A stretch of DNA of 64,000 nucleotides from Fluviicoccus sp. (GCF_030646115.1 NZ_JAUSMX010000027.1:165651-229650); one strand, 5' to 3'; counted from the stretch's first letter, positions 9,476-33,706 are shown. A program made the numbers and translations. The notes: generated from the letters alone by a model not told the origin.

Positions 9476-9485
9476 GAGCGCCGCC

Positions 9486-15717: not shown

Positions 15718-15728
15718 GCGGGGCGGGG

Positions 15729-15750
15729 GATCACCGTCGCGGCGGTGATC
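15729..15750. terminator. Hairpin between convergent genes
   Basis: GATCACCG-TCGCGG-CGGTGATC, perfect 8-bp stem; no clear U-tract. Confidence 0.5.
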
Positions 15751-15764
15751 GCGGGAAAGGCGGG

Positions 15765-15863: not shown

Positions 15864-15993
15864 GGCGTTCTCGGGTTTTGGTGGGTGTAAGGTCACTATA
15901 CGCCTTGGCGGGGCTGGGCGGGGGGATTTCGTTTTTGGAGCGACGGGATTCTGATGGGCTGTGGCAGGTGGAAATCATGGGAGATATTCATAT

Positions 15994-16611: not shown

Positions 16612-16801
16612 ACAGTTTCAAAAGACTGCGATGGCGGTATGCCTCCCTGCCGCACCCATGTGACGCCCGGTTGTGTACGCTGCGCTCCGGGAACTCTATA
16701 CTGAGTCATGGGTGCCGGTCTTTCATGCCCGGCAATGGACGATCTCATGACCGGGGAAGGATGGTGAAAGACTGTTGGCGCAATTGTACAAGGCGTGACC
16801 C

Positions 16802-19198
16802 ATGAACAGCGGTCATGCAGCCCGGTTCTTGCTGTGGGCGCTCTGCCTGCTGGGTTTCTGGCTGGGCGCTGTGGCCCGGGCCGACGAGCTTGCCCTGCGG
16901 CAAGGCCAGTCCACCTACGAGCCCTACCCTCAAATTCGCTATTTCTGCAGCAAGCCGGAAACCGCACCCACGCTGGACCAACTGCCGGCCGACCCCGCCC
17001 GCCCGCCGTGGAAACCGGTGGGGAACACCGCCCCGACCTTCTTTACCGACGACATCTGCTGGTTCCACCTGACGGTGCGCAACCAGGATCATCCGGTGCG
17101 GGACTGGATGCTGGAAATCCCCTTCCCGTTCCTGAATGACATCCAGGTTCATATCCGCGATGAGCAGGGCCGCCGGGTGGCTGACTATGTTTACGGCCAC
17201 ATGCGGCCGGTCAGCCAGCGGGTCATTGCCGACCGCTACCCGGTGTTTCCCCTGACCCTGCCGCCCGGCAGCCATCAGGAGGTGTATTTGCGGGTGAAGA
17301 GTGATCACCTGCAATTACCGCTGACCGTGGTTGAACACAGCGTCCTTGACGCCCGGAACCGGGTTGTCACCCTGTTGCAGGGGATTTTCTTCGGCGGCAT
17401 GGCGGTGATGTTTTTCTACAACCTCATGCTCTGGGCCTTTGTCCGCGACCGGGTCTACCTCTACTACGTGTTCATGGTCTTCGTGGTAACCCTGTTCCAG
17501 TTCGACCTGCAGGGCCTGGCCAAGCTGTACCTGTGGCCGGAAACCACGCAGTTCGCCTCCTATGCCACCCGCCTGGAACTGCCGCTGATCCTGATTGCCG
17601 ACAGCCTGTTCTTCCTCAGCTTTCTGGAATTGCGGCGGCGGTCGCCGGGCTGGGCGCGCTGGATGCGCATGCTGGTGGCGATGGGAGTGGTGCAACTGCT
17701 GGCAGTGCCGCTGCTGCCCAATATCGTCACCACCACTGTGGCCTTGGGGTTCCTGCTGCTGCTGACCATCTCGGGCATGCTGGTGGGGCTGAGCCGCATG
17801 GCGGCGGGCGACCCCGAGGCGCGCATCTTCAGTGTGGCCTGGGGTTGCCTGATCTTCGGCGGCGCGCTGATGCTGTTCAACAAGATCGGCGTGCTGCCCC
17901 GTAATACGTTCACCGAGAACCTGTTCCAGCTGGGCAGCTTCCTGGAAGCCATCCTGATGTCCATGGCCCTGGCCAGCCGCATCAACCGTCTGGAAACGGC
18001 GCGGCTGGTGGCCGAGCAGGGGCATGCGCTGGCCCAGCAGAAAGCGCTGTTGGCCGACCAGCAAAACCAGGCCAAGGGCGAGTTTCTGGCCAAGATGAGC
18101 CATGAAATCCGCACCCCCATGAACGGGGTGCTGGGCTTTGCCCAGCTGATGCAGGAAACACCGCTGACGCCCGCGCAACGGAATTATATGGAGATGCTGC
18201 TGAGTTCCGGGGAAATCCTGCTCACCGTCATCAACGACATTCTGGATTACTCCAAGATCGAATCCGGCAAGTTGACGCTGGAAAGCATTCCCTACCACCT
18301 GCCGAATGTACTGGCGGAATGCGTGGCCATTTCCGGCCTCAGCGCCAGCCAGAAGTCGGTGGAGCTGGTGATTGACCTAGACCCCGACGTGCCGGTCTGG
18401 GTGCAGGGCGATCCCGTCCGCCTGCGCCAGATTCTGCTGAACCTGCTGAACAATGCCATCAAGTTCACCCCGCAGGGGACCATCCACTTGCGCGCCCGGG
18501 TGTTGTCGGCCGCCGGCGACCCGGTCGCGCAGTTGTCGCTGGAGGTGGAGGATTGCGGCATCGGCATGAGTCCCGAGCAGGTGGCCACCTTGTTCCAGAC
18601 CTTCCGCCAGGCCGAGTCCTCCACCACCCGGCGCTATGGCGGCACCGGGCTGGGGCTGGCCATCTGCAAGCAACTGGTAGGCCTCATGGACGGCGAGATC
18701 GGGGTGGACAGCGTGCCGGGCCAGGGCTCCAATTTCTGGGTCAGGCTGTCACTGCCGCGCGCGCAGGCACCAACGCCCCGCAGCGAGGGCTGGGCGCGGG
18801 CGGAAATGGGGGCCATGCGGGTGCTGGTGGCCGAGGACAACCCGGTCAACCTGATGGTGATTTCCGGCATGCTGGGGCGTCTGGGCATTCAGCCGCTGGT
18901 GGCGGCGGACGGCCGTGAGGCGGTGGATCTGGTGCGCCGGCACGCCGGTGCGCTGGATCTGGTGCTGATGGATTGCGAAATGCCGGGACTGGACGGGTTT
19001 GAAGCCACACGGCAAATCCGAGCGCTGGAGCAGGCCAACCGCTGGCCGCGCCTGCCGGTGATTGCCCTGACCGCGCATGTGCAGAGTGACGAATCGCTGG
19101 CGGCGGGCATGGATGACCACCTCAGCAAGCCGTTGGTGCTGAAGGCGTTGGCGGAAAAACTGGCGAAGTGGAAGCCGCCCCAACGTTCAACCGAATAA
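16802..19198 (+). CDS. 7TM-DISM hybrid sensor histidine kinase/response regulator
   Basis: 7TMR-DISMED2-like periplasmic domain, 7 [35 protein letters not shown] domain MDCEMP. Confidence 0.93.
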
Positions 19199-19219
19199 CG
19201 CCCTCCTTACCCTGCCCCC

Positions 19220-19318
19220 GTAGGGGCGCATCGCATGCGCCCTCGCGAACGAACAGAATGCCGGTTTACGGAATGAACTGCGTGTTCTGCGAAGAGGGCG
19301 CAAGCGTTGCGCCCCAAC
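19220..19318. repeat. REPIN 1 (inverted REP doublet)
   Basis: GTAGGGGCGCATCGCATGCGCCCT, 51-nt spacer, AGGGCGCAAGCGTTGCGCCCCAAC. Confidence 0.9.
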
Positions 19319-19361
19319 GCTCAGCCAAATGAAGCCCTTCTATTCCGTGTCCCTGACCCCC

Positions 19362-19459
19362 GTTGGGGCGCATCGCATGCGCCCTGGTGGACAAACAGGA
19401 TATCAGTTTCGGAATGTGCGGCGTGTTCTGCGGAGAGGGCGCAAGCGTTGCGCCCCAAC
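19362..19459. repeat. REPIN 2
   Basis: GTTGGGGCGCATCGCATGCGCCCT, 50-nt spacer, AGGGCGCAAGCGTTGCGCCCCAAC. Confidence 0.9.
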
Positions 19460-19463
19460 GCCA

Positions 19464-19970
19464 TTATGTGGCGATCGTCAGGCTATTGAAGCAATCATGC
19501 TGCCAACGTGCCGGATTTTCCCGAATATATTCTGCAATCCGCCTGTATTCATCCTCATTGCGGATAACGCGGTCGTGATAATTCCGCTGCCAGATGCAGT
19601 CCAGATCGTGGATGCCGGAAACCCGTCGGATTGCGGCTGTCACGGTGCCTTTGTAGCCTCTGATGATATCCGTGATCGAAGATGGCGGAACCCCGGCCGG
19701 TGCTTCAATCAAATGGATGATGGCATGCACGTGATTGGGCATGACAATGAGGTCTGCTAACGTCACGTCCGGACGCAGGGGTGTGGTGCTATGCCAGGCT
19801 GTGTGAGCAATGGTTCCCCAGGAATTCAGAATCATCCGGTTGTCCCTGATATCTCCAAATAGCATTTCACGCTGACGAGTAACCAAAGTGATGAAATACG
19901 CCCCGCGATGCCGGTAATCATGACCGGGCCAACGGGTGCTGTTGCGGCGAAGGCGTTTTGGTTGATTCAT
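19464..19970 (-). mobile_element. REP-associated tyrosine transposase (RAYT/TnpA-REP, Y1 HUH family)
   Basis: YFITLVT, MPNHVHAI (HUH), WQRNYHDRVIR (catalytic Tyr region); GGAGG RBS; flanked by REPINs on both sides. Confidence 0.92.
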
Positions 19971-20017
19971 GCTGGTTCCTCCCTGAACCAAATAACGCCA
20001 TTGTAACTCCAGACCCC

Positions 20018-20117
20018 GTTGGGGCGCATCGCATGCGCCCTCTAGACCGAACAGGAAGCCGGTTTACGTAGTCAACAGCGTGTTCTTGCGAAGAGGGCGC
20101 AAGCGTTGCGCCCCAAC
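20018..20117. repeat. REPIN 3
   Basis: GTTGGGGCGCATCGCATGCGCCCT, 52-nt spacer, AGGGCGCAAGCGTTGCGCCCCAAC. Confidence 0.9.
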
Positions 20118-20138
20118 GCATCTACCTGGCAACCACCC

Positions 20139-20741
20139 TCAAGGCTTCGCCTTCTCCTTGGCCTTCTCTTTCGCCGCCACCGCTTCCACCTGAATCCGCA
20201 ACGTCACGTCCATCTTGAAGCCCCAGTCCTTGCCCGCGCTGATGCCGAAGTCATCGCGGTTGAGGGTGGCGATGGCGTCTGCGCCGCAGAAGTCACGCTT
20301 CAGCATGGGGTGCGGCATGCACTTGACGGAATTCAGGGTCAGGGTCAGCGGTTTGGTGACGCCGTGCAGCGTCAATTCACCGTCCACCCGCGACGGCACG
20401 CCGTTGGTGTAACCGGCAAAGGTGCCCTTGTAGTAGGCCTTGGGGAATTTCTTGGCATCAAACAGTTCCGGGCTGCGCGCCTTGGCGTTCATGGCGTCCA
20501 GGCCATAGTCGATGCTGTTGATGTCGATGGTGATGTCGACGCTGCCGCTGCCGCCTTCCTTGTCGATCACCAGCTTGCCGCTGGTCTTGTTGAACTTGCC
20601 GCGCCATACAGACATGCCGCCGAAATGGTCGGCTTCGAAGCTGGGGAAGGTGTGGGTGGGCTCGATGTCGTAGGTGACCGGGGCGGCGTTGGCGGTGGCG
20701 CACAGGCCGAGCAGGGTGAGGGGGAGCAGGTGTTTTTTCAT
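20139..20741 (-). CDS. YceI family protein
   Basis: Signal peptide; YDIEPTHTFPSF, WRGKF, GELTLHGVTKP, LNRDDFG. Confidence 0.92.
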   Translation of the reverse strand: MKKHLLPLTLLGLCATANAAPVTYDIEPTHTFPSFEADHFGGMSVWRGKFNKTSGKLVIDKEGGSGSVDITIDINSIDYGLDAMNAKARSPELFDAKKFPKAYYKGTFAGYTNGVPSRVDGELTLHGVTKPLTLTLNSVKCMPHPMLKRDFCGADAIATLNRDDFGISAGKDWGFKMDVTLRIQVEAVAAKEKAKEKAKP

Positions 20742-20824
20742 GGGGTGGTCCTTGTCGGAGGTGGTTGTTGTTATGGGGGTGAACCGGTCCGATAGTACAC
20801 CGGGGAAGGGACGCGCTGAAGCCC

Positions 20825-20983
20825 GACTACCGGTTCCGTGCCGTGGCTCCGCGCCGGGAGGTGGCGACGGCGATGGCGAACATGGTAGAAACGCTGGATT
20901 ATTCTAACTTCAAGAGTCAGGTGGCGACGGTGCGGGGTGCGGGACGTGCGCATCTGCACCACGATGTCTGGCCTGTGCTGTAG
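20825..20983 (+). pseudogene. Start-less C-terminal remnant of a conserved hypothetical protein
   Basis: Frame reads DYRFRAVAPRREVATAMANMVETLDYSNFKSQV...HHDVWPVL*, protein-like and similar to a DY(R)YRA...IDYxNFK family I recall; in-frame TGA at 20780. Confidence 0.4.
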
Positions 20984-21005
20984 GGACTTCAGAGGGATTA
21001 ACGCC

Positions 21006-21617
21006 ATGTACCATCCACGGAAAAATGACCAGGGCAAGCCGGTCACGTTGAACAAGCCGTCCACGCCCAGTGATCTGGCCACATGGCAGGACCCGGGGGC
21101 GGTTGCCTGTGTGATTCCGGACGGGGCCATGCCGGAGTCGGTCAACGGGACTCCGATCCTGTCCTGGCAGGCTCCGGCGACCACGACGGAGTGGGAGGCC
21201 TTGGCCGCCGCCATGCCGTTGGCGGAGCCGGAATTCGTGGCTCCCGGTGGTTTGCAGCGGGCGGCTGGTGTGGTGGTGCGGGAGCCGGACGGACGGGTGT
21301 GGGTGGTGGCACCCAGTAACGCGTTTGGCGGGTATGAGGCGACGTTTCCCAAGGGGCGGCTGGATGGGCGTTCGGCGAAGGCGGCGGCGCTGGTGGAGGT
21401 GTTTGAGGAGTGCGGGTTGCGGGTGCGCCTGACCGGGCATTTGCTGGATGTGGTGCGGTCAACGACATATACGCGGTACTACACGGGGGAGCGGTTGGGC
21501 GGGAATCCGGCGGATATGGGGTGGGAGAGTCAGGCGGTGTTGCTGGTGCCGATGGCGGCGTTGGCCAAGGTTGCTCATCATGTGAATGATGTGCCGATCA
21601 TTCGGGCGCTCGATTGA
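21006..21617 (+). CDS. NUDIX hydrolase
   Basis: FPKGRLDGRSAKAAALVEVFEECG variant Nudix box. Confidence 0.82.
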   Translation: MYHPRKNDQGKPVTLNKPSTPSDLATWQDPGAVACVIPDGAMPESVNGTPILSWQAPATTTEWEALAAAMPLAEPEFVAPGGLQRAAGVVVREPDGRVWVVAPSNAFGGYEATFPKGRLDGRSAKAAALVEVFEECGLRVRLTGHLLDVVRSTTYTRYYTGERLGGNPADMGWESQAVLLVPMAALAKVAHHVNDVPIIRALD

Positions 21618-21670
21618 TCGAATAATCAAGTCTGCCCGTTTCCCCTGACCCTGTTTCCTCCCACCCGGAT

Positions 21671-22117
21671 TCAGACGGTCTGCTTGAACCCACCCCTCTG
21701 AAATGACTCATAAAATTCCTGATCTTCCCAATCATCATCCAAAGCCGCCAGAATGGTTGAGGACGATGTGGTTATCAGGTTTGAGGTCCAAAGGTCTACA
21801 GGTGTGCCCTTGAGCGATTCGGCGATATTGTAGAATTCGTTCCAGCGTGTGGCGTGGATCAGATACCAGATGTAATCCTCAGGTACATAGTCCTTCGGCC
21901 TCGAGCCACCAGGCAGGCTAGTTCCGAAATGTTCCTTTAACGTGATTTCAATCAGTCCTAAAATCCATGACTTTAATGGCGGATGCTCCAGAATAAATTC
22001 GGTCGCCTTGATAAACAAAAATTCAGCATGATTGAGGCCCCACTGCTGGGTATGAAGCAGGTCAAACTGGTAGTCGAGCAAAACCCCAACGTATTTTTTG
22101 GCAGCTTCGATTTCCAT
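21671..22117 (-). CDS. Hypothetical protein (low GC, possible immunity protein)
   Basis: 148-aa AT-rich ORF co-oriented with the SMI1-like gene, 5 nt downstream of it. Confidence 0.7.
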   Translation of the reverse strand: MEIEAAKKYVGVLLDYQFDLLHTQQWGLNHAEFLFIKATEFILEHPPLKSWILGLIEITLKEHFGTSLPGGSRPKDYVPEDYIWYLIHATRWNEFYNIAESLKGTPVDLWTSNLITTSSSTILAALDDDWEDQEFYESFQRGGFKQTV

Positions 22118-22122
22118 GGCTT

Positions 22123-22437
22123 TTAAATTGCTCCTCGCAGCATGAGTTCAAATGCCTCCCATGACGAAGCCAGCTCCATTGCCACTTTTGGCTCCATTCC
22201 AATAAAGGGGAGACACACCACCGCACCATCAAGCGCAATCGCAAACATCTCGCCACCCCCGCTTGTTCCGAAGCCAAAGTAGCCGGGTGCCAGTACCGGA
22301 ACTTCATACTCCTGATTGAACTGCAGTAGCTCATCCTGTTCCCAGAACTCACAGATAAATGGACTCACATCCAGTTCGCAAACCAAGGGCTTGCCATCGG
22401 CGAAATACGTCGCAAGTACTGAGGGAATATCATTCAT
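22123..22437 (-). CDS. Compact SMI1/KNR4-like protein
   Basis: EFWEQDELLQFNQEYEV...YFGFGTSGGGEMFAI...VVCLPFIGME...LASSWEAF. Confidence 0.78.
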   Translation of the reverse strand: MNDIPSVLATYFADGKPLVCELDVSPFICEFWEQDELLQFNQEYEVPVLAPGYFGFGTSGGGEMFAIALDGAVVCLPFIGMEPKVAMELASSWEAFELMLRGAI

Positions 22438-22710
22438 TTCGGTTGGGCATCCGTGCAGTTAGGGCTACCCCAGTATCTTCGCGAACCGAAAGCAACTCAA
22501 GCCTTGGCACGGCGGCAAACGACACCTATCCCCCCGCATGCTATAAATCATTCCTCGGCAACCGGACCCAATCAACTTCCGATCGCCCCAAATAAACATT
22601 ACAATGTAGTAACGCAAATTAATCCCGGTTTCCCTCCGCCGCCAAGTCGCCCCGGAAACCGCAAAAAACAACACCATCCCCCACACCCAAAGGGGAACCC
22701 CGGAGTCCGC

Positions 22711-25700
22711 ATGTCTCTCCCCGCCATCCCCCCGCGCCCCGCCCGCAACAACCCCCTCACCACCCGCGCCGCCTGGGAAACCGCCCGACAGGCCTGCCAA
22801 ACCGACCCCGGCCACTACCACGGCGCCATCGCCCGCCGTCAACTGCACTGGTACATCGAACAAGAAGGTCAGGAAGCCTGCTGGCTCACCGTCAACCCCG
22901 ACACCCACCACTGGCAGGGCTACCACGCCCGCACCGGCGAACCCGTCCACCCCCAACTGCCGCCCGACTTCACCCCCTGGCACACCGCCCTCGACACCAC
23001 CGACGCCCCGTTCTACCGCTGGTTCAGCGGCGGCCTCACCAACGCCTGCTTCAACGAAGTCGACCGCCACGTCCTCGCCGGACACGGCCACGAAGCCGCC
23101 CTCTGGTTTGAAGGCGACCGCTGGGACCAATCGCTGGACAACGGACGCGGCGGCCCCGTCGTCTCCTACCCGGTCAGCCGCCGCCAGCTGCTGCTGGAAA
23201 CCGCCAAATGCGCCCTGGCCCTGCGCCGCCTCGGCCTCCAGGCCGGAGACCGGATCGCCATCAACATGCCCAACATCCCGGAACAGATCTACTGGACCGA
23301 AGCCTGCAAACGCATCGGCGTCGTCTACACCCCGGTGTTCGGCGGCTTCAGCGACAAGACCCTCTCCGACCGCATCCACAATGCCGGCGCGCGCATCGTC
23401 ATCACCGCCGACGGCGGCTACCGCAACGCCCAGATCGTCGCCTACAAGGAAGCCTATACCGACCCCGCGCTGGACAACTACGTGCCCGCCGAAGTCGCGC
23501 TGGCCGCTGTCGCCGCCGCGCTGCAACCGCTGGCGCTGACCCCCGCCCAGCGCGACGCCATCCTCGACGGCGCGCAACAGGCGGTGGCGGCGGAAATCAC
23601 GCTGGAACGCTCGGACGTGATGCGCGGCGTCGGCCAAGCGCTGGAAGCCTTGCCCGGACTGACGTCGGTGGAGGCCAGCCGCATCCGCACCGCCATCGCC
23701 TCGGCGCTGGTCAACACCCCGGCGCGGGTGGATACCGTCATCGTCGCCCGCCATGCCGCCCAGCCCGATCTGGTGTGGCGGCCGGAGCGCGACCGCTGGA
23801 GCGACGAGCTGACCGGCGAGGCGCTGCAAACCCTGCTCGCTGCCGCGCGGGCGCAGGGCTTCGACGTCGCGGACGAAGCCGCGCTGCTGTGGCTGGACGA
23901 CCGGCAGCTGGTCGCCGCCATCTGGGCCTCCGTCCCCCCGGAACCGCTGGACAGCGAATTCCCGCTGTTCTTCATTTACACCTCCGGCTCCACCGGCAAG
24001 CCCAAGGGCGTGGTGCATGTGCACGGCGGCTACGTCAGCGGCGTCGCCCACACCTTCCGCATCGCCTTCGACGCGCAGCCGGGCGATGTCATCTACGTGG
24101 TGGCCGATCCGGGCTGGATCACCGGCCAGAGCTACATGATCTCCGGCGCGCTCGCCAGCCGCGTCACCACCGTCGTCGCCGAGGGCGCGCCTGTGTTCCC
24201 CGGTTCCGGCCGTTTCGCCAGCATCATCGAGCGGCTGAAGGTCACCATCTTCAAGGCCGGGGTCACCTTCCTCAAAACCGTGATGACCGACCCGCAGAAC
24301 GTGCAGGACGTGCGCGCCTATGCGCTGGACTCGCTGCGCGTCGCCACCTTCTGCGCCGAACCGACCTCGCCGGTGGTGCAGCAGTTCGGCATGGAGCTGG
24401 TGACGCCCTGGTACATCAACTCCTACTGGGCCACCGAGCACGGCGGCATCGTCTGGACGCACCTCTACGGCAACCCCGATTTCCCGCTGCGCGCCGATGC
24501 CCATACCTATCCGCTGCCCTGGGTGATGGGCGATGTCTGGGTGGCCGACAGCGAGCCGGACGGGAAGGGCAGTGTCGTTGCACGGTCGGCGGAGGACGGG
24601 GAGAAGGGCGAAATCGTGATTGCCGCGCCGTACCCCTACCTGTGCCGCACCATCTGGGGCGACGAAGCCAATTTCAGGGTGGAAGGGCGGGTGGTGGCGC
24701 GCGACTGGCGCGGCGATTTCGGGCGCTATGAAAAGACCTACTGGCAGCGCTGGCAGGGCACACTGGCCTACACCCAGGGCGACTTCGCCATCCGTCATGC
24801 CGACGGCGGTTTCTCGCTGCACGGCCGCTCGGACGATGTCATCAACGTCTCCGGCCACCGCCTGGGCACCGAGGAAATCGAGGGCGCGATCCTGCGCGAC
24901 AAGCAGGTGCGGCCGGATTCGCCGGTGGGCAATGTCATCGTCGTCGGTGCGCCCCATCCGCACAAGGGGCTGACGCCGCTGGCCTTCATCAAGCCGGTGC
25001 CGGGGGCGAAGCTGTCGGCGGAAGACCGTCGCCGCCTGATCGAGATGGTGCGGCAGGAGAAGGGGCAGGTCGCCATTCCCGAAGACTTCATCGAGGTGTC
25101 GCAGTTCCCGGAGACGCGCAGCGGCAAGTACATGCGGCGCATGGTGCGGGCGCTGGTGGAAGGGCAAGACGTCGGCGATACCTCGACCTTGCGCAACCCC
25201 GAATCCATTGCCGAACTGCGCCGCGCTATCGACGACTGGCAGGCGCGCCAGCGCGTCGCCGCCGAGCAGACGCTGTTCGAGGATTTCCGCTATTTCCGCG
25301 TTCACTACCATGCGCTGCCGGTGCAGCCGGATGGCGCGGTGGCGCGGCTGGCGCTGGTCACCATCAGCAATCCGCCTGTCAACGCTCTCAACGAGCGGGC
25401 GCTGGATGAACTGAACATCGTGCTCGACCATGTGGAGCGTCGTGACGACGTCAAGGCGGTGATCTTCACCGGTTCCGGCACCGCCGCCTTTGTCGCCGGG
25501 GCGGACATCCGCCAGTTGCTGGAAGACGTGCATACGCTGGACGAAGCGCTGCCGCTGCCGAACAACGCCCATCTCGCCTTCCGCAAGATCGAGGCGATGG
25601 CGAAGCCGGTGATCGCCGCCATCAACGGCGTGGCGTTGGGCGGCGGCATGGAATTCGCGCTGGCCTGTCATGTGCGGGTGGCCGACCGCGCGGCGGTGTT

Positions 25701-28155
25701 CGGCCAGCCGGAAGTGCGGCTGAACCTGCTGCCCGGTTACGGCGGCACGCAACGGCTGCCGCGCCTGCTGGAGCTGGCCGGGCACGCCGCGCCGCTGGTG
25801 CGGGCGCTGGAAATCATCCTCGGCGGCCGCACCCACGAAGCGGACGCCATGCAGGCGGACGGCCTGCTGCACGGCTTGGCGCAGGACGCCGAGGACGTGG
25901 TGCAGGTGGCGGTGCGGATGGCGATGGCCTATGTCGCCGATCCGGCCGGTGACAATCCGGTGGCGCAGGCCTTTGCCCGTCGCGTAGCGGCCCGCCCGCA
26001 CTGGCAGCAGGCGGGGCAGGCCTCGTTTGCAGAGGCGCTGGTCGATGCCGAAGTCCGCCGCCTGCTGGCCCAGGCCGACGCCGTCGGTCGCGGGGCCACC
26101 GCCGCCCGCATCCTCGACGCCCTGCGCACCGGCTGGGAACAGGGCATCGCCGCCGGGCTGGCGCGTGAGGCGCACCTCTTTGCCGAAGCCGTGATCGACC
26201 CCTTGGGCGGCAAGGCCGGTATCCGCGCCTTCCTCGACAAGCAAAGCGCGCCACTGCCCACCCGCCGCGACACCGCGCCATCGCCGGAACAACAGGACGA
26301 ACTGCTGCGCAACGGTCAACTGCTGCCGGTCGGTTCCCCGTTCTGGCCCGGCCTCACGCCCTTGCCGCTGTGGCAATACGCCCACGCCGTGGTGCGCGAC
26401 CCTGCCACCGGCGCGCCCGCGCACGGCCTGCCGCGCCACAGCGAACGCCAGATCCTCGCGCCGGTGCCGCAGCCCGGCCCCAACGAGGCGCTAGTCTACG
26501 TGCTGGCCTCGGAAGTCAACTTCAACGACATCTGGGCGCTCACCGGCATCCCGGTCTCGCCCTTCGACAACCACGATCTGGACTATCAGGTCACCGGCTC
26601 CGGTGGCGTGGCGCTGGTCGCCGCGCTGGGCAGCGAGCTGCGGCGCGAGGCCCGGCTCAAGCTCGGCGATCTGGTGACGATCTATTCCGGCGAAAGCGAA
26701 CTGCTGTCGCCGCTGGCCGCGCGCGATCCGATGTACGCCGGATTCGCCATCCAGGGTTACGAAACCGACACCGGCAGCCACCAGCAGTTCCTGCGCGTGC
26801 AAGGCCCGCAACTGCACCCGCTGCCGCCCGACCTGACGCTGGAAGCCGCCGGTTCCTACGTGCTCAACCTCGGCACCATCGTCCGCGCGTTGTTCACCAC
26901 GCTGCGCATCCAGCCCGGCCGCACGCTGTTCGTGGAAGGCGCGGCCACCGGCACCGGCTTCGAGGCGATGAAGACCGCCGCCCGCCATGGCCTCACCACC
27001 ATCGGCCTCGTCTCCAGCCCGGAACGCGCCGACTTCATCGCCACGCAGGGCGCGGCCGGAGCCGTCAACCGCAAGGACCCGCGCTGGGCGCAGGCCTACA
27101 CGCCGGTACCGTCCACCCCGGAGGCCATCGCCGCCTGGGAGCAGGCCGGGGAACCCATCCTCGCCGAATTCCGCCGCCAGAGCGGCGGCCGCCTCGCCGA
27201 TTACGCCGTCTCGCACGCCGGGCAGGAATCCTTCCCGCGCAGCTTCCAGCTGCTGGCCGAGCACGGCACGCTCGCCTTCTACGGCGCCACCAGCGGCTAC
27301 GCCTTCAGCTTCGCGGGCAAGCCCGGCGCGTCTACCCCGGAAGAGATGCTGCGCCGCGCCGGCTTGCAGGCGGGGGAGGCGGTGCTGCTGTATTACGGCG
27401 TCGGTTCAAGCGAACTGTTGGACCCGGTGGGTCTGGAAGCCATTGAAGCCGTGCGCGCCGCCGGGGGACGGCTGGTGGTCGCCACCGCCCGTGACGCACA
27501 GCGTGAGTTCGTGCAGTCGCTGGGCTTTGGCGATGCGGTGAAGGGCGTGGTGTCGCTGGAAGAAATCCAGCGCAAGGAAGGGGCCGATTTCGAATGGCCG
27601 GAGTCCTTGCCCGCCATGCCGGACGCCAAGACCGACACCGCCGCCTTCAAGGAAGCCGTGCGCCGTTTCCAGGAACGCACCATGAAACCCTTCGGCACCG
27701 CCATCGGTCGCTGGCTGCGCTCCACCGACAACCCGCGCGGTTACCCCGATCTGGTGATCGAACGCGCCGGGCATGACGCGCTGGCGGCTTCGACCTCGCT
27801 GGTGAAACCGTTCACCGGTCGGGTGGTCTATTGCGAGGAACTGAAAGGGCGGCGCTACACCTTCTACGCACCTCAGGTGTGGACGCGCCAGCGCCGCATC
27901 CTGATGCCCACCGCCACCATCGCCGGGACGCACCTGTGCAATGCCTTTGAAGTGACGAAGATGAATGACCTGATTGCCGCCGGGCGGCTGGATGTCAGTC
28001 CGCCGTTGCTGGTGGACTGGGAGCAGCTGCCGCAGGCGCACCAAGCGATGTGGGACAACAGCCATGCCGGGGCGAATTATGTGGTGAACCATGCGCTGCC
28101 GAGGGCGGGGTTACGGTCGAGGGATGAGTTGTTTCAGGCGTGGGCGGGGGAGTAG
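22711..28155 (+). CDS. pcs: Trifunctional propionyl-CoA synthase-like enzyme (CoA ligase - enoyl-CoA dehydratase - enoyl-CoA reductase)
   Basis: About 1814 aa; ACS motifs YTSGSTGKPKG, YWATEHGG, GRSDDVINVSGHRLG, TRSGK; crotonase FVAGADI, ALGGGMEFALAC, GQPEVRLNLLPGYGGTQRL; MDR SEVNFNDIW, EGAATGTG; GGAG RBS. Confidence 0.9.
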   Translation: MSLPAIPPRPARNNPLTTRAAWETARQACQTDPGHYHGAIARRQLHWYIEQEGQEACWLTVNPDTHHWQGYHARTGEPVHPQLPPDFTPWHTALDTTDAPFYRWFSGGLTNACFNEVDRHVLAGHGHEAALWFEGDRWDQSLDNGRGGPVVSYPVSRRQLLLETAKCALALRRLGLQAGDRIAINMPNIPEQIYWTEACKRIGVVYTPVFGGFSDKTLSDRIHNAGARIVITADGGYRNAQIVAYKEAYTDPALDNYVPAEVALAAVAAALQPLALTPAQRDAILDGAQQAVAAEITLERSDVMRGVGQALEALPGLTSVEASRIRTAIASALVNTPARVDTVIVARHAAQPDLVWRPERDRWSDELTGEALQTLLAAARAQGFDVADEAALLWLDDRQLVAAIWASVPPEPLDSEFPLFFIYTSGSTGKPKGVVHVHGGYVSGVAHTFRIAFDAQPGDVIYVVADPGWITGQSYMISGALASRVTTVVAEGAPVFPGSGRFASIIERLKVTIFKAGVTFLKTVMTDPQNVQDVRAYALDSLRVATFCAEPTSPVVQQFGMELVTPWYINSYWATEHGGIVWTHLYGNPDFPLRADAHTYPLPWVMGDVWVADSEPDGKGSVVARSAEDGEKGEIVIAAPYPYLCRTIWGDEANFRVEGRVVARDWRGDFGRYEKTYWQRWQGTLAYTQGDFAIRHADGGFSLHGRSDDVINVSGHRLGTEEIEGAILRDKQVRPDSPVGNVIVVGAPHPHKGLTPLAFIKPVPGAKLSAEDRRRLIEMVRQEKGQVAIPEDFIEVSQFPETRSGKYMRRMVRALVEGQDVGDTSTLRNPESIAELRRAIDDWQARQRVAAEQTLFEDFRYFRVHYHALPVQPDGAVARLALVTISNPPVNALNERALDELNIVLDHVERRDDVKAVIFTGSGTAAFVAGADIRQLLEDVHTLDEALPLPNNAHLAFRKIEAMAKPVIAAINGVALGGGMEFALACHVRVADRAAVFGQPEVRLNLLPGYGGTQRLPRLLELAGHAAPLVRALEIILGGRTHEADAMQADGLLHGLAQDAEDVVQVAVRMAMAYVADPAGDNPVAQAFARRVAARPHWQQAGQASFAEALVDAEVRRLLAQADAVGRGATAARILDALRTGWEQGIAAGLAREAHLFAEAVIDPLGGKAGIRAFLDKQSAPLPTRRDTAPSPEQQDELLRNGQLLPVGSPFWPGLTPLPLWQYAHAVVRDPATGAPAHGLPRHSERQILAPVPQPGPNEALVYVLASEVNFNDIWALTGIPVSPFDNHDLDYQVTGSGGVALVAALGSELRREARLKLGDLVTIYSGESELLSPLAARDPMYAGFAIQGYETDTGSHQQFLRVQGPQLHPLPPDLTLEAAGSYVLNLGTIVRALFTTLRIQPGRTLFVEGAATGTGFEAMKTAARHGLTTIGLVSSPERADFIATQGAAGAVNRKDPRWAQAYTPVPSTPEAIAAWEQAGEPILAEFRRQSGGRLADYAVSHAGQESFPRSFQLLAEHGTLAFYGATSGYAFSFAGKPGASTPEEMLRRAGLQAGEAVLLYYGVGSSELLDPVGLEAIEAVRAAGGRLVVATARDAQREFVQSLGFGDAVKGVVSLEEIQRKEGADFEWPESLPAMPDAKTDTAAFKEAVRRFQERTMKPFGTAIGRWLRSTDNPRGYPDLVIERAGHDALAASTSLVKPFTGRVVYCEELKGRRYTFYAPQVWTRQRRILMPTATIAGTHLCNAFEVTKMNDLIAAGRLDVSPPLLVDWEQLPQAHQAMWDNSHAGANYVVNHALPRAGLRSRDELFQAWAGE

Positions 28156-28173
28156 GGGGATTCAACGGGTCAC

Positions 28174-28210
28174 GTAGGGGCGCACTGCGTGCGCCCTTTT
28201 CGCAGAACAC
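28174..28210 (+). repeat. Orphan REPIN half (B arm)
   Basis: GTAGGGGCGCACTGCGTGCGCCCTTTTCGCAGAACAC, including the conserved spacer segment CGCAGAACAC. Confidence 0.85.
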
Positions 28211-28221
28211 ACACGTCGCTC

Positions 28222-28620
28222 TCAGAAATCCAGGAAGTTCATCAGCAGAATATACAGAATCCCCATCCATACAACCACCAGGCCGCCATAGCTGGTTAGC
28301 ACCCAGAGAGCGTAAGCCTTCGAAAATGATGGCCTTGGCCTGAAAATGATGCCCAGCAAGTACCCGTAGCCAAAATAGTTAATGAGTACACAGAGGCAGG
28401 CAACAATCAGTCTTGAACTATGTCCACTAAACTCAAAACTTGCCAAAGCCAAAGGGGAACTAAACATGAGAGCCATCATCACGCCAACTTTCCAATGTTC
28501 CCCAAGCAAAGCGCTGAACCCGTAGAGCATGATATTGATCAGGACAAACAGGCTGCCTAATGCCAGACCGGCCTGATGCCGGGTGCAGGGGTGCGGGACG
28601 TCGGTGGAAGGCGGTTTCAT
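28222..28620 (-). CDS. Hypothetical membrane protein (low GC)
   Basis: 132 aa with about four hydrophobic segments. Confidence 0.65.
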   Translation of the reverse strand: MKPPSTDVPHPCTRHQAGLALGSLFVLINIMLYGFSALLGEHWKVGVMMALMFSSPLALASFEFSGHSSRLIVACLCVLINYFGYGYLLGIIFRPRPSFSKAYALWVLTSYGGLVVVWMGILYILLMNFLDF

Positions 28621-28818
28621 GAGGGTAATCCGGTCAATCAGGAGACAGCGTCAGTTTGGAGTTTTGTCGGGAAGCCTGGGTGAAGCGGTGATGTGTGAGT
28701 TGTGAATTGGCGGTGAAGAATGGGAAAACCGTGACGGGAGCAGGATTTGTTGACGAACACTGATCACACCCGTCGATGTGTGACAACATCCATGCCGGGG
28801 CGGACTATGGGGTGAAAC

Positions 28819-29154
28819 CTAAGCCCCCAACAACCGTCGCATCAGCAACGACTGCATATCCCGTCGCCCGTCCGCCATCAGCAGCACATAAACCCGCTGC
28901 CCGGACACCCGGTAAATCACCCGCCACGGCTTGAAGTACACCTGACGGTACTCCCGGATACCCAGCGCCGCCAGTTCCGGCGGCCAGGTGCCGCGTTCCG
29001 GAAAAGCCGCAATGCTGTCTGTCACCGCCAACAACTGATCCAGAACCTGATCCGCCTTTTCAGGGCTGTCGTAAGCCGCCAGATAGTCATAAATCGCCTC
29101 CAGATCCTGTTCGGCGCCCTTGGTCAGCAGTACCTGAAAGGGGGTTTCAGGCAT
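28819..29154 (-). CDS. RelE/ParE family toxin
   Basis: VLLTKGAEQDLEAIYDY...YRQVYFKPWRVIYRV...ADGRRDM. Confidence 0.9.
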   Translation of the reverse strand: MPETPFQVLLTKGAEQDLEAIYDYLAAYDSPEKADQVLDQLLAVTDSIAAFPERGTWPPELAALGIREYRQVYFKPWRVIYRVSGQRVYVLLMADGRRDMQSLLMRRLLGA

Positions 29155-29429
29155 CAGTCACGCACCCGCTTGGCGCGCAGCCGCGTGGCCACATCTGCAA
29201 CCGGCGTCACTTCACCCATCTCGATCTCCCGGCTGCCCAAGGCCAGGATTTTCAGCAGCGCCAGCGTTTCCTGGGTCTCTTCATAACTGGCGATATCCTG
29301 CATCACCGCCCGGGCTTCCCCGTTCTGGGTGATGATCAGCGGACGGCGCTGTTCGGAGAGGTCACGCAGCACCTCGGCGGCATTGGCCTTGAGGTAGCTG
29401 ACCGGTTTGATATCGCTGGCGTGGGACAT
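29154..29429 (-). CDS. Phd/YefM family antitoxin
   Basis: IKPVSYLKANAAEVL...PLIITQNGEARAVMQD; overlaps the toxin start. Confidence 0.92.
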   Translation of the reverse strand: MSHASDIKPVSYLKANAAEVLRDLSEQRRPLIITQNGEARAVMQDIASYEETQETLALLKILALGSREIEMGEVTPVADVATRLRAKRVRD

Positions 29430-29442
29430 GGCGGTTGCGTCA

Positions 29443-29469
29443 GGACTGAATAAAGACTGAATATAGTCC
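29443..29469. promoter_or_regulatory. Probable TA autorepression operator
   Basis: GGACTGAATAAAGACTGAATATAGTCC: direct repeat GACTGAATA plus terminal GGACT/AGTCC inversion, just upstream of the antitoxin. Confidence 0.5.
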
Positions 29470-29574
29470 GAACTCAGGGCCGGAGCAATCTTGATCCCGA
29501 TACATCTACCGCTTCAACGCCAGCATCCGCTGCTGCCGTTTTGCTGTGTATGCAGCGTACCGTTTAACGGTCTC

Positions 29575-29669
29575 GTAGGGGCGCACGGTGGGCTCCCTTT
29601 GGCAGAACACTCCGGTCTTCATGAATGATAGCCTGTTCGTCTGCGAGGGCGCATGCGATGCGCCCCAAC
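29575..29669. repeat. REPIN 4 (inverted relative to REPINs 1-3)
   Basis: GTAGGGGCGCACGGTGGGCTCCCT (degenerate arm) ... AGGGCGCATGCGATGCGCCCCAAC. Confidence 0.88.
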
Positions 29670-29683
29670 AGTCAGTACCGGCA

Positions 29684-30907
29684 TCAACAGCCGCAGCTCA
29701 CCTTTTCATCATAAAACTCGTAGTGGCCCCGCAACTGCTCGCGACCCATCACCCAGCGCATGGAACGCCGCGTGCAGGTGCAGGAACCGCTGCTGACGTT
29801 CCCCTGTGAAGCATTGTTGCGCGCCTGTTCGGCCTCGCGTTTCCGCGCCGCGACCGCCTCTTTCGCGGCGGCTTCCTGGGCGGCAATGGCTTTAGTCGTC
29901 TCTTCCAGGAATTGGGCGTTCTTTCGGCCATAACTGGCGGCGGCCTGCAGGCTCGCGCCCTTGCTGATCAGGTATTCCCCCACCAGCCGGTAGTTTGCGC
30001 CCAGCGCGGTGTTGTCACTGTTGGTCAGGAAGTACAACGCCGGGCCGACATGCTCAGCCTCGTGGTTGACATCCGCCCCGGCCTCCACCAGCACCATCAC
30101 CGCATTCAGTAAATTCTCCTCGCCGCGCTTGAGGACCTCCGGAGAGCCGCCAGCCCGGTTTTCCTTGACCAGCTGCTGCAGCGGCGCGGTGCCGTATTTC
30201 TCCAGAGCGTTGGGATTGGCGCCTTTCAGGATCAGGTACTGGATCAATTCGGCATTGCCCCGGTTGGCGGCTTGATGCAGCGCCGTTGTGCCGTAGTCGT
30301 TGGCGCCGTTCACCTTCGCACCCTTCTCCACCAGCAAGCGCACCATCTCCAGGTTGTTGTTGCCTGCCGCGGCGCGCAACTCCCGGCTGTCATTGCCGTC
30401 CACCCTGGCACCATGCGCCAGCAGCAGTTTCAAGGCTTCCAGGTTGTTTTCCTCGGCGGCATAGCCAGTGGGGTCAACATAGACATAACTGGTCGTTCGC
30501 GGGTCCTGAGTCTGTGCGTTGGCGCTCGCGCCGTGCTCCAGCAGCCAGACCATCAGGTCCATGTCCTTGCGCATCAGGGCCAGGATCACCGGCGTTCCCC
30601 GGCCGCCGCCGCTGCGGTCGGGATTTGCTCCGTGGGTTACCAGGTACTCGACGACCTCGCGGTGATCGTTTTCGATGGCCAGCTTGATGGCATTGGTGCC
30701 ATTCCAGTCGTCATTGATGTCAACGCCGCTTTCTATCAGCTTCTGGACTTTCTTCAGCTTGCCTTTTTCAGCGGCGGCGATAATGTCGGGTTTGGGCGGG
30801 ACCTTGGCGGCGGCCGGGGCACTGAGGCCCAGGCTGAGAATGAACAGCATCAACAATGACGTAAAGGCGGTCCTGACGGGGGTGAGGCAAGGTGCGTCCA
30901 TGAGCAT
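29684..30907 (-). CDS. Exported ankyrin-repeat protein
   Basis: Signal peptide; repeated GA.VN...TALH.AA units; Cys-containing C-terminal tail. Confidence 0.88.
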   Translation of the reverse strand: MLMDAPCLTPVRTAFTSLLMLFILSLGLSAPAAAKVPPKPDIIAAAEKGKLKKVQKLIESGVDINDDWNGTNAIKLAIENDHREVVEYLVTHGANPDRSGGGRGTPVILALMRKDMDLMVWLLEHGASANAQTQDPRTTSYVYVDPTGYAAEENNLEALKLLLAHGARVDGNDSRELRAAAGNNNLEMVRLLVEKGAKVNGANDYGTTALHQAANRGNAELIQYLILKGANPNALEKYGTAPLQQLVKENRAGGSPEVLKRGEENLLNAVMVLVEAGADVNHEAEHVGPALYFLTNSDNTALGANYRLVGEYLISKGASLQAAASYGRKNAQFLEETTKAIAAQEAAAKEAVAARKREAEQARNNASQGNVSSGSCTCTRRSMRWVMGREQLRGHYEFYDEKVSCGC

Positions 30908-31032
30908 GCTCCAGGGGGAGGTTGGCAGGTTTTATTCGGTGATGTCGGGGGTATTCTCCATCGCGGGAAGCGGGGCAGGCAATAGGGGAGATCGGGGCAA
31001 AGCCGGAGCGGATTTTTCCGGGAAACAGATAT

Positions 31033-31068
31033 TGTTCGTCCGCAAGGGCGCATGCGATGCGCCCCAAC
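31033..31068 (-). repeat. Orphan REPIN half (A arm)
   Basis: TGTTCGTCCGCAAGGGCGCATGCGATGCGCCCCAAC, near-identical to 29634-29669. Confidence 0.85.
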
Positions 31069-31078
31069 GACTGGATAT

Positions 31079-31360
31079 TCAGCATTTCAGCGAGTCCATC
31101 CACCGCTTCCGCTCCGCCGTATAAAACCACCACGGCCGCGCCTCTTCTCCATCCATAAACCGGGTAATGGATATGAACGTATCCAGCATGCACGGATCGG
31201 CATGCACCCCGTCAATCTCCGCCAGCCGGTCATACAGCGCCAGCGGGCAGCAGCCCGCCAACTGCCCCGGCTCGGTAATGCCCAGGCGTTGAAGATCGCC
31301 TGCCACGGCCTTACCCACATTGGGCAGGTCGGTCAGTTTGCGCACCTGTTCGCGGATCAC
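31079..31360 (-). CDS. Small HhH protein (Cdd1/pathogenicity-locus-like)
   Basis: LTDLPNVGKAVAGDLQRLGI...LYDRL...DPCMLDTF...PWWFYT. Confidence 0.8.
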   Translation of the reverse strand: MIREQVRKLTDLPNVGKAVAGDLQRLGITEPGQLAGCCPLALYDRLAEIDGVHADPCMLDTFISITRFMDGEEARPWWFYTAERKRWMDSLKC

Positions 31361-32298
31361 TTTCGCAGGGTTGATGGTATCGCCTCCCGGTAAAGCCTCG
31401 CCCGGTCCAGTTCCGCCTGCACCGCCGCCTCCACCGACGCCAGCGCCCGCCGGAACCGGACCTGTTCATCTTCGCTGCGATCATCCTCCCCCAGCAAATC
31501 CTGGATGGCCAGCGGTTCACCAATCTGCATGCGGATGGTCCACGGCACCCAGGGCAGGAACACCAGCGGCGACGACAACCAAAGCCACGTCAGCAGCAGG
31601 CGTTGACCCAGCGGCCGCTTGCCTGGCCAGAACAGGATGATGCCAGCGCCCGCCACCCCCAGCACCGTCAGCGCCCAGCGCTTCAGCCCGATCAGGCCGG
31701 GCAGCACCAGCAGCTTCGACAGCGACTTGGAGCGCCACAGGATGGGCGCGGTGTAGTGCGACCCGTAAATTCCCAGCGGCACAATGGGAATGCCCGCCTC
31801 GGCGGCAATGCGCAGGAAACCGGTACGACCGCCGAAGTCCACCCGGTTGGCCTGCCAGACCGGCCGCAACACCTCGTGATCGCCACCGGGAAAGACCAGG
31901 ATCGGCACACCGGCCGCCAGCGCCTGCCGCGCGGCCTCGTAGGTGGAAGGGATGGCGCCGCCCGCCCGCAGCAATTGGGTAAACGGGAAGACATGGAAAG
32001 TCAGCGGCAGGGTGAACCCCGCCAGCGGACGGTTGACGCCGAATTCCTGAAGCCACAGCGTAAAGAAACTGCTGAGTTCGGCAGCCGCCACGCCGCCGGA
32101 ATGGTTGGCGACCAGCAGGTAGGGGCCGTCGGTCGGCAGGTTTTCCAGCCCGCGCAGGCTGGGGCGGTGCAGCAGGCGCAGCAGGGGGCCGCCAACGCGG
32201 TTGGCGAGGGTGACCAGCGCCGGGGCAAAGCGGCCGGGGGAGTCCACCGTGATGCCGGCGGCCAAGTCGTTGAAGCTAAGCTTGTGGAAAAAGGGCAT
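31357..32298 (-). CDS. Lysophospholipid acyltransferase family protein
   Basis: LVANHSGG, VFPGGDHE, RTGFLRIA, IVPLG. Confidence 0.88.
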   Translation of the reverse strand: MPFFHKLSFNDLAAGITVDSPGRFAPALVTLANRVGGPLLRLLHRPSLRGLENLPTDGPYLLVANHSGGVAAAELSSFFTLWLQEFGVNRPLAGFTLPLTFHVFPFTQLLRAGGAIPSTYEAARQALAAGVPILVFPGGDHEVLRPVWQANRVDFGGRTGFLRIAAEAGIPIVPLGIYGSHYTAPILWRSKSLSKLLVLPGLIGLKRWALTVLGVAGAGIILFWPGKRPLGQRLLLTWLWLSSPLVFLPWVPWTIRMQIGEPLAIQDLLGEDDRSEDEQVRFRRALASVEAAVQAELDRARLYREAIPSTLRK

Positions 32299-32452
32299 GG
32301 TATGGCTTCACGGCATGAGTGACAGCGTTGCTTTGAGTATATGCGTTATGGGCAGAGTCCGCCCTGACATCCCGGCAAACACCATGACATCTGTCACTTG
32401 CTCCGCAACCGCCGCTGCGCCAGCATGTCGCTTCATACTCAGGGGGCAAACC

Positions 32453-33706
32453 ATGAACCAGACCCGTCAACTCGGCCTTGCCGGGATAGCGCTGCTCACC
32501 GCCGGCATGGCTTTTGCCGCCACACCCGCCGCTCCCGCTGCAGCTCGGCCCAAGGCGGCGTCCATGCCCGTCATCAACGCCCCCGAGAGCGGCTCCAGCC
32601 TGCTGGCCCGCACCAAGGCCCTGCTGGACAAGCCTTCCACCTGGGACCGCATTCCCGCCAAGGTGACCCTGTGCCTGTTCGCCCCCGGCGGCACCAACAG
32701 CCGCGCCTATGAATACGCCATGGGCAGCCTGTCCCAATTGCCCAAGTACACCAACATGGCCAAGGAAGTCGGCATCGACCTCAATGTCGCCTTCACCTCG
32801 CCCACCAGCCTGCGCATCGACATCGCTTCCGCCAAGCTGAAGCGCAAGGCCACCACCGACGTCAAGATCAACCTCTTCACCGACGAGCGCATCGCCTCCG
32901 AGGAATTCAAGGTCAAGCAATGCGACGGCGTGGCCATCAGCAGCCTGCGCGGCCGCCAGTACAACCCCTTTATCGGCAGCCTGGATGCCATTGGCGCCAT
33001 CTTGTCCTACCAGCAACTGACCGAGGCCATCACCTTGCTGTCCCGGCCGGAAATGGCCTCTTACATGGTCAACCAGGATGTCGAGATCGTCGGTATTGTG
33101 CCGCTGGGAGCAGCCTATGTCATGGTCAACGACCGCCGCATCAACACCCTTGCCAAGGCGGCGGGCCGCAAGGTGGCGGTGCTGGATTTCGACAAATCCC
33201 AGGCCTCCATGGTGCAGAAGATCGGTGCGCAGCCGGTGTCGGTGGACCTGACCAGCGTCGGCGGCAAGTTCAACAACGGTCAGGTGGATATTCTGGCCAT
33301 GCCCGCGCTGGCTTTCGAACCTTTGGAGCTGTACCGGGGCATGACCGACGACAAGGGCAACGCGCGCGGGGCCATCTTCAAGTTTCCGCTGCTGCAGGTG
33401 ACCGGGATGATGATGATGCACCGGGGCAAATTCCCTGACGGCATCGGCCAGCTGATGCGTGAATTCATCGCCATGCAGCTGGCGCCGGCCTACCAGTTCA
33501 TCCTGGAAACCGAGAGCGCCATTCCGGTGAAGTACTGGATGGACATTCCGGAGTCCGACAAGCCCGGTTATATCAACATGCTGCGCAGCGCCCGGCTGGC
33601 GGTGACCAAGGACGGCTTTTACGACCCGCGGATGATGAAGCTGCTGAAGAATGTCCGTTGCAAGCTGGAGCCGTCCAATTATGAGTGCAGCCTGAATGAT
33701 GAGTGA
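32453..33706 (+). CDS. Putative solute-binding protein (AdeT/DUF6091-like)
   Basis: Signal peptide; TDERIASEEFKVKQCDG, LGAAYVMVNDR, KFNNGQVDI, ALAFEPLELYRG, CKLEPSNYECS. Confidence 0.8.
   Translation: MNQTRQLGLAGIALLTAGMAFAATPAAPAAARPKAASMPVINAPESGSSLLARTKALLDKPSTWDRIPAKVTLCLFAPGGTNSRAYEYAMGSLSQLPKYTNMAKEVGIDLNVAFTSPTSLRIDIASAKLKRKATTDVKINLFTDERIASEEFKVKQCDGVAISSLRGRQYNPFIGSLDAIGAILSYQQLTEAITLLSRPEMASYMVNQDVEIVGIVPLGAAYVMVNDRRINTLAKAAGRKVAVLDFDKSQASMVQKIGAQPVSVDLTSVGGKFNNGQVDILAMPALAFEPLELYRGMTDDKGNARGAIFKFPLLQVTGMMMMHRGKFPDGIGQLMREFIAMQLAPAYQFILETESAIPVKYWMDIPESDKPGYINMLRSARLAVTKDGFYDPRMMKLLKNVRCKLEPSNYECSLNDE

Follow-up and report, generated by a model that had tools for sequence, protein, structure and literature searches.

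A propionyl-CoA synthase gene acquired without its usual mcr partner by a Fluviicoccus-like member of the Moraxellaceae

In the characterised propionyl-CoA synthase (Pcs), the three steps of the reaction take place within one protein chamber. In Rhodobacter sphaeroides, the reductive assimilation of 3-hydroxypropionate (3-HP) via propionyl-CoA is reportedly achieved by separate enzymes, among them the acrylyl-CoA reductase AcuI. Both AcuI and the toxicity of acrylate are documented in the literature (PMC4029986). The chemistry of the Pcs family is the conversion of 3-hydroxypropionate, with CoA, ATP and NADPH, to propionyl-CoA via enzyme-bound acrylyl-CoA (PMC10176493). In Chloroflexus, Pcs belongs to an autotrophic bicycle that is complete, and the pcs gene is unlinked to mcr, the gene of malonyl-CoA reductase (Mcr) (PMC3150298). 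Both Pcs and Mcr are already known outside Chloroflexota, and metagenome surveys often take Pcs as a marker of the 3-hydroxypropionate bicycle (PMC9802188), a use that is explicitly avoided elsewhere (bioRxiv 10.64898/2026.09.02.748891).

The window considered here, that is, the whole stretch of DNA that was analysed (64,000 nucleotides), contains on its plus strand an open frame without interruption from 22453 to 28155. The start of pcs is placed at the ATG in position 22711, 5 nt past a GGAG motif (22702-22705), and the same ATG was chosen by the JGI gene caller for the orthologue, 95.6% identical, on contig L081, which belongs to a sister strain from a different sample. The resulting protein of 1814 aa agrees exactly with the extent first proposed for the gene (22711-28155). 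The features of the locus are the following:

20777..29678, no strand: about 8.9 kb that are extra relative to the Fluviicoccus genome L082, with NUDIX, a 148-aa ORF, SUKH, pcs, a 132-aa ORF and ParE/Phd (L082 gene table, blastn)
22524..22710, plus strand: 187-bp leader common to sister strain L081, with the GGAG ribosome-binding site at 22702-22705 (blastn of L081 against the window)
22711..28155 including the stop codon, plus strand: pcs, trifunctional propionyl-CoA synthase, 1814 aa (ORF, Pfam/NCBIfam, PDB 6EQO, family-invariant residues)
22711..25260, plus strand: ligase (3-hydroxypropionyl-CoA synthetase) domain, about aa 1-850 (ACAS_N 87-115, AMP-binding 381-640, AMP-binding_C 738-806)
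Within the ligase, by motif search: TSGSTGKPKG 424-433, TEHGG 575-579, GRSDDVINVSGHRLGTEEIE 705-724 and SGKYMRR 804-810 (aa)
25345..26205, plus strand: dehydratase (crotonase-fold) domain, about aa 879-1165 (Pfam ECH_1 879-1074, ECH_2 890-1083)
Within the dehydratase, by motif search: two catalytic Glu motifs, GGGME 977-981 and GQPE 998-1001 (aa)
26362..28152, plus strand: acrylyl-CoA reductase domain (MDR, crotonyl-CoA carboxylase/reductase-like), about aa 1218-1814 (TIGR01751 1239-1533)
28178..28200, plus strand: REP-type hairpin GGGCGCA-ctgcg-TGCGCCC, then TTTT, starting 23 nt past the pcs stop (sequence reading)

Pfam domains succeed one another along the protein in the order ACAS_N, AMP-binding, AMP-binding_C, ECH_1/ECH_2 and ADH_zinc_N, and the NCBIfam segments are those of an acetate/propionate-CoA ligase, an enoyl-CoA hydratase and a crotonyl-CoA carboxylase/reductase. 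The reductase domain is also matched by Pfam ADH_N, ADH_zinc_N and ADH_zinc_N_2, and by the Ccr of PDB entry 4GI2 (1218-1509). Among all PDB chains, the top match is 6EQO (2462.6 bits), in a single collinear stretch of query 17-1812 against chain 24-1840, and the other PDB matches cover one domain each. Although 6EQO is titled 'acetyl-coenzyme A synthetase' in the PDB, it is the propionyl-CoA synthase of Erythrobacter sp. NAP1. The order ligase, hydratase and MDR reductase is hence found in one chain of about 1800 aa that is collinear over its full length with a characterised Pcs. The Pcs of Erythrobacter sp. NAP1 and that of Chloroflexus aurantiacus (Caur_0613) share these three domains and their order, and are of about the same length. 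The identity of the window Pcs is about 62-63% to Erythrobacter orthologues and 62% to the Oscillochloris orthologue, and it reaches 78-81% with the Pcs proteins of the Steroidobacterales/Acidibacter/Nevskiaceae branch. What differs from the Erythrobacter and Chloroflexus cases is the host, a heterotroph of the Moraxellaceae, and the lack of an adjacent mcr; in Erythrobacter-type bacteria, unlike here, pcs is paired with mcr. With R. sphaeroides, the likeness lies in the same net conversion of 3-HP (or acrylate) to propionyl-CoA, serving heterotrophic assimilation together with removal of toxic acrylyl-CoA. However, the proteins of R. sphaeroides are separate and unrelated or distantly related, whereas one fused polypeptide is predicted to perform all three steps here.

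The conservation of individual residues was followed in an alignment of the window Pcs with 80 species-level homologues. The protein keeps 489 of the 490 columns that are invariant in this set (the exception is E992D) and 161 of the 162 near-invariant ones (the exception is G1314A). All catalytic motifs are present, comprising the P-loop, hinge and A10 lysine of the ligase and both glutamates of the crotonase, and the reductase core is intact as judged by column conservation across the homologues, not by individually mapped residues. From its sequence, the gene is a real and intact full-length Pcs orthologue, and the original prediction of a ligase-dehydratase-reductase fusion that matches Pcs is upheld by domain order, collinearity with 6EQO and conserved residues. 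The exact protein is absent from an exact-sequence look-up, as is any 100%-identical Pcs from the homologue search; the AdeT protein encoded in the window is on record.

The main particularity of the locus is what follows pcs. One genome per GTDB species was scanned for relatives; at least 586 species contain a Pcs relative, and the best 80 loci were taken, of which 75 have enough sequence downstream of pcs to be informative. In 69 of these 75 GTDB representatives, pcs is closely followed by mcr in the same orientation, with a gap of at most 231 bp or an overlap in 66 of the 69 pairs. For instance, in L007, from the sister lineage, the TTG start of mcr overlaps the stop of pcs. The ORF after pcs in the relatives, with 1220-1290 aa, is a bifunctional Mcr, which gives 1207 and 1148 bits to the full-length 8HI4 and 8HJW and also matches 6K8S. 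The flanks of the pair vary between relatives, so that the pair behaves as a self-contained two-gene cassette. Unrelated genes come after pcs in each of the six informative loci that lack the partner, namely those of a Nevskiaceae member (L011), two Rhodocyclaceae/Burkholderiales MAGs (L015 and L018), Rubrivivax (L056), Aneurinibacillus danicus (L064) and the Chloroflexota member Oscillochloris (L074), in which pcs and mcr are unlinked.

In the window, the place past the pcs stop where relatives start mcr is occupied by the REP hairpin and by accessory ORFs on the minus strand, and the gene immediately downstream is not mcr. No Mcr was detected in the 64-kb window by tblastn with four Mcr proteins (best E 0.078), and none of the other genes of the 3-HP bicycle (mcl, mch, mct, meh, smtAB, propionyl-CoA carboxylase) appeared among the approximately 45 window ORFs scanned with Pfam and NCBIfam, in accordance with the initial observation that malonyl-CoA reductase and the rest of the cycle are missing from this stretch. 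Since in the relatives pcs almost invariably heads a pcs-mcr pair, the window copy represents a cassette whose second gene was lost or never received. Compared with the cassettes of Steroidobacterales, Gemmatimonadota, Sphingomonadales and Burkholderiales, it is a descendant with the second gene missing.

The most serious alternative is that mcr, or separate genes for a malonyl-CoA reductase and a 3-HP dehydrogenase, lies elsewhere in the genome, in which case the usual half-cycle from malonyl-CoA to propionyl-CoA would operate. This arrangement has precedents in Chloroflexota, since both Oscillochloris and Chloroflexus (PMC3150298) carry pcs and mcr unlinked though they belong to the same cycle. 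Against it stands the source metagenome X1 (SRR13727526, groundwater), the home sample of the window, which holds 99% of the sampled pcs words. Contigs of X1 were placed on pcs and mcr of L002 and L007 at 80% nucleotide likeness. On the pcs references, pieces of 300-880 nt were found at a depth of 30-37, which is that of the organism, but the two mcr references drew only pieces of about 50 nt at SDR motifs, with an 80% nucleotide floor that would miss a distant mcr or a non-homologous malonyl-CoA or malonate-semialdehyde reductase. At this same 80% floor, the mcr of L010 and L039, from other clades, again gave only scraps of about 50 nt, and altogether the four mcr references represent three clades, one of them that of the donor. 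The long pieces on pcs and the short scraps on mcr make a co-transferred mcr very unlikely. In addition, none of the named matches among the best 120 homologues of the Mcr of L007 is from Fluviicoccus or any other member of the Moraxellaceae, and the sister strain L081 also lacks mcr at this locus. An mcr elsewhere in the genome is accordingly regarded as improbable. The reading of a stand-alone Pcs, already made in the original prediction, holds for the locus itself, in the window and in L081, and the source metagenome supports it at the nucleotide level.

The origin of the gene is revealed by the disagreement between the protein and its surroundings. A tree of 82 Pcs proteins pairs the window Pcs with that of L081 and nests the two, with 100% local support, in a clade of 17 members from Steroidobacterales, Acidibacter and Nevskiaceae. 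The remaining members of this clade have the pcs-mcr pair in 15 of 15 cases, and the nearest of them to the window/L081 pair is L007. The flanks have a different affinity. The AdeT protein is 84-88% identical to that of Fluviicoccus sp., 66% to Agitococcus, 62-64% to Aquirhabdus and 54-57% to Acinetobacter, a gradient which indicates that the host is a Fluviicoccus-like member of the Moraxellaceae. The MAG of Fluviicoccus sp. GCA_036273075.1 (L082) has FtsX-ABC-NhaA, YceI, AdeT, the ankyrin protein, the acyltransferase and TetR in common with the window, at 83-91% nucleotide identity. According to its gene table and to blastn synteny, 63 bp separate YceI and the AdeT segment in L082 and pcs is absent; the region 20777-29678 is therefore an insertion relative to L082, situated between YceI and the AdeT/ankyrin block. 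The nesting of the protein among Steroidobacterales-type Pcs, the Moraxellaceae flanks and the empty site together show that pcs was acquired horizontally without mcr. Horizontal acquisition, initially raised as a possibility, is well supported by these data. No donor-derived flank was found by blastn of the 5′ leader and the 3′ flank against the 80 relatives, and no integrase or IS adjoins pcs. Composition does not set the gene apart, with a GC3 of 0.87 in pcs and of 0.82-0.88 in host genes, which suggests that pcs has either resided long in the host or come from a donor with a similar composition.

The patch around pcs is composed of accessory DNA. Upstream are a RAYT gene with REPINs, YceI, NUDIX, the 148-aa ORF and a SUKH immunity-like ORF; downstream are a 132-aa membrane ORF, ParE/Phd, the ankyrin protein, an acyltransferase, AdeT and a Shango-type triad of TerB, ATPase and helicase. 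The small ORFs that flank pcs have 47-51% GC against a background of 63% in the window. In the JGI contig L081, the order is RAYT-YceI-pcs-AdeT-helicase, and the small accessory genes on both sides of pcs are absent. The proposal of accessory flanks is confirmed by the RAYT/REPIN, NUDIX, SUKH, ParE/Phd, ankyrin and Shango genes and by the variation between strains with respect to L081 and L082. At the locus, pcs has no linked gene for a transporter, a regulator or the production of 3-HP. AdeT was considered as a functional partner and rejected: it adjoins YceI in L082, which has no pcs, so that it is native to the site and its adjacency to pcs is coincidental.

Such surroundings raise the question of whether pcs is a functionless passenger, a recently moved half-cassette that is useless without mcr and is decaying. 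In favour of this view are the strain-variable patch, with its AT-rich orphan ORFs, toxin-antitoxin genes and REPINs, the lack of a functionally linked neighbour beside pcs, and the frameshift in the related contig L081, where one extra G near window position 27606 changes the frame of the last 180 residues. However, the pcs genes of the window and L081 are separated by a dN/dS of 0.09 at a dS of 0.145 (0.12 in the ligase, 0.13 in the dehydratase and 0.04 in the reductase), and the segment downstream of the frameshift still has a dN/dS of 0.04, in agreement with the near-complete retention of invariant residues. pcs is under purifying selection. In addition, contigs from three further groundwater metagenomes (X2, X3 and X6) show no indels in the pcs coding region, so the L081 frameshift is either private to that contig or an error; it could reflect a gene that is dispensable in some strains, or an assembly error. 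At least four groundwater populations thus carry an intact pcs. The host-like GC3, suggestive of long residence, also argues against a recent and decaying arrival. In short contigs of sludge metatranscriptome libraries, pcs is covered about like its neighbours, which is weak evidence of transcription since DNA carry-over is possible. On balance, a decaying passenger is very improbable, and a pcs kept by selection is the preferred reading. Finally, a chimera produced by assembly or binning of the MAG, for which the origin of the window in a groundwater metagenome and the conflict between the Pcs phylogeny and the flanks might speak, is rejected as having next to no probability, since pcs is joined to its flanks in an independent Logan contig of 15,849 nt (SRR13727526; the 3′ 3.3 kb of pcs with ParE, ankyrin, AdeT, Shango and TetR), in the independent JGI contig of another sample and in contigs of X2, X3 and X6 that extend from pcs into the flanks.

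With regard to function, the ligase domain would activate 3-hydroxypropionate with ATP and CoA, the crotonase domain would dehydrate 3-hydroxypropionyl-CoA to acrylyl-CoA, and the Ccr-like domain would convert acrylyl-CoA to propionyl-CoA with NADPH. The donor was of the Steroidobacterales/Acidibacter type, in which pcs heads a pcs-mcr pair, and pcs landed without mcr between yceI and adeT, at a site that varies among strains, in a Fluviicoccus-like heterotroph of groundwater (Moraxellaceae). There, 3-HP might come from uptake or from other catabolism, and the propionyl-CoA formed would enter ordinary propionate metabolism, that is, the methylcitrate or the methylmalonyl-CoA route. Because without Mcr no 3-HP can be obtained from malonyl-CoA in this way, Pcs most likely assimilates imported or catabolic 3-HP. 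The most likely role is therefore a one-enzyme assimilation of 3-HP to propionyl-CoA, in which substrate, physiology and the fate of propionyl-CoA are deduced from the chemistry of the family; acrylate is possibly a further substrate. The role first proposed, assimilation or detoxification of 3-HP or acrylate, is likewise predicted from this chemistry. Taken as a whole, the account of a predicted functional Pcs that was transferred without mcr from a cassette-bearing donor and is used for 3-HP assimilation appears probable. A much bolder proposal, which we offer as a long shot, is that recurrent solo Pcs might be a scavenging strategy of heterotrophs, with 3-HP as a public metabolite cross-fed by cassette-bearing or other producers in groundwater and wastewater, or else that Pcs might be served here by a non-homologous and so far unrecognised route from malonyl-CoA to 3-HP.

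Other cases of solo pcs are found in the partner-less loci named above outside Chloroflexota and in megaplasmids of haloarchaea. Like the window, they encode a full-length Pcs without a downstream mcr, so the loss or absence of the mcr partner recurs, but they represent independent events on other branches of the tree. The haloarchaeal proteins, retrieved from a plasmid collection, are full-length, 54-55% identical to the window Pcs and without mcr. Their genes are adjoined by those for an acyl-CoA carboxylase beta subunit, methylmalonyl-CoA mutase, an iron alcohol dehydrogenase, an aldehyde dehydrogenase and IclR. A solo Pcs inside such a cluster of propionyl-CoA/methylmalonyl-CoA catabolism indicates that Pcs is used without Mcr in a catabolic setting; by contrast, the window Pcs has no functionally related neighbour.

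The solo pcs constitutes a natural experiment which indicates that the enzyme is of use by itself. Given that pcs moved alone into a heterotroph and is strongly selected there without mcr, a Pcs match by itself is uninformative on CO2 fixation. The case also bears on engineered pathways in which Pcs serves as a self-contained module from 3-HP to propionyl-CoA (PMC10266731, PMC11599936). The kind of enzyme is itself known, and the novelty is modest: the host family, the transfer of pcs alone from a cassette-bearing donor and its upkeep by selection. Aside from the points on the marker and the module, pcs is an ordinary accessory metabolic gene.

Regarding the ends of the transcription unit, the homology between the window and L081 spans from 187 bp upstream of the ATG through 55 bp beyond the stop. 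A simple scan found no σ70 consensus upstream of pcs. At the other end, the REP-type hairpin, whose repeat is present in many copies in L081, is, with the TTTT behind it, a likely terminator of pcs, which would make the gene monocistronic at its 3′ end. Farther away in the window, an aldehyde dehydrogenase (47055-48575) was discarded as a linked gene because it is of the ExaC type and not MmsA, and an acyl-CoA dehydrogenase (40354-41499) is of a generic kind.

A propionyl-CoA synthase (Pcs) relative is present in at least 586 GTDB species. Among the best 80 loci, taken as one genome per species, 75 are informative, that is, have enough downstream sequence, and in 69 of these pcs forms a tight two-gene cassette with mcr, the malonyl-CoA reductase gene. 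The hosts of this cassette belong to the Gemmatimonadota and to the Alpha-, Beta- and Gammaproteobacteria, and its flanks show no conservation between loci.

The solo pcs of the window, which lacks mcr, is also found in a sister strain (metagenome contig L081). Between the two, the pcs segment (window 22524-28210) is 95-96% identical at the nucleotide level, compared with 90.6-92.6% for the native flanking genes, a difference consistent with strong constraint, or with the strains having exchanged the pcs segment more recently. In the sister-strain contig, one extra G at position 7703 (window about 27606) shifts the frame of the last 180 pcs codons; since this G is absent from the populations of three further groundwater metagenomes (X2, X3, and X6), the frameshift is either erroneous or a mutation private to that contig. 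Residue 992 of the window Pcs (25684-25686), placed between both catalytic glutamates of the crotonase domain, is Asp, while Glu is invariant at this position in 80 homologues.

Two features of the surrounding region were compared with the congeneric Fluviicoccus MAG L082, which has no pcs at this site:

33710-39496, minus strand: Shango-like operon (TerB_N/TerB_C protein, BrxC/D-family ATPase, DEAD helicase)
29679-33704, compared with L082 4445-8090: region of the ankyrin-acyltransferase block and its position relative to AdeT

The three Shango-like genes overlap as a single operon and are absent at the corresponding position in both L082 and L083. Relative to AdeT, the ankyrin-acyltransferase block is upstream in the window and downstream in L082; the region has undergone rearrangement in addition to expansion.

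Full-length Pcs without mcr (54-55% identical) is also found on haloarchaeal megaplasmids (L086, H1, H2, H4, and H5), for example:

NZ_CP095398.1 (L086), 5064-20327: solo Pcs cluster, Natribaculum luteum plasmid

The haloarchaeal cluster includes acyl-CoA carboxylase beta, methylmalonyl-CoA mutase, Fe-alcohol dehydrogenase, an NAD(P)-binding protein, aldehyde dehydrogenase, and IclR, and resembles an island for C3 alcohol/3-HP catabolism; no paper describing such a cluster was found. Another solo Pcs, 60% identical and on a long branch, occurs in the Bacillota isolate Aneurinibacillus danicus (L064 2225-9879), followed by a uracil-DNA-glycosylase-family gene and a xanthine/uracil permease-family gene. 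Two betaproteobacterial MAGs, L015 and L018, carry nearly identical solo Pcs proteins, and the usual place of mcr is filled by two other genes:

L015 15565-16910 and L018 9625-10970: low-GC3 BglII-type endonuclease and MT-A70 methylase
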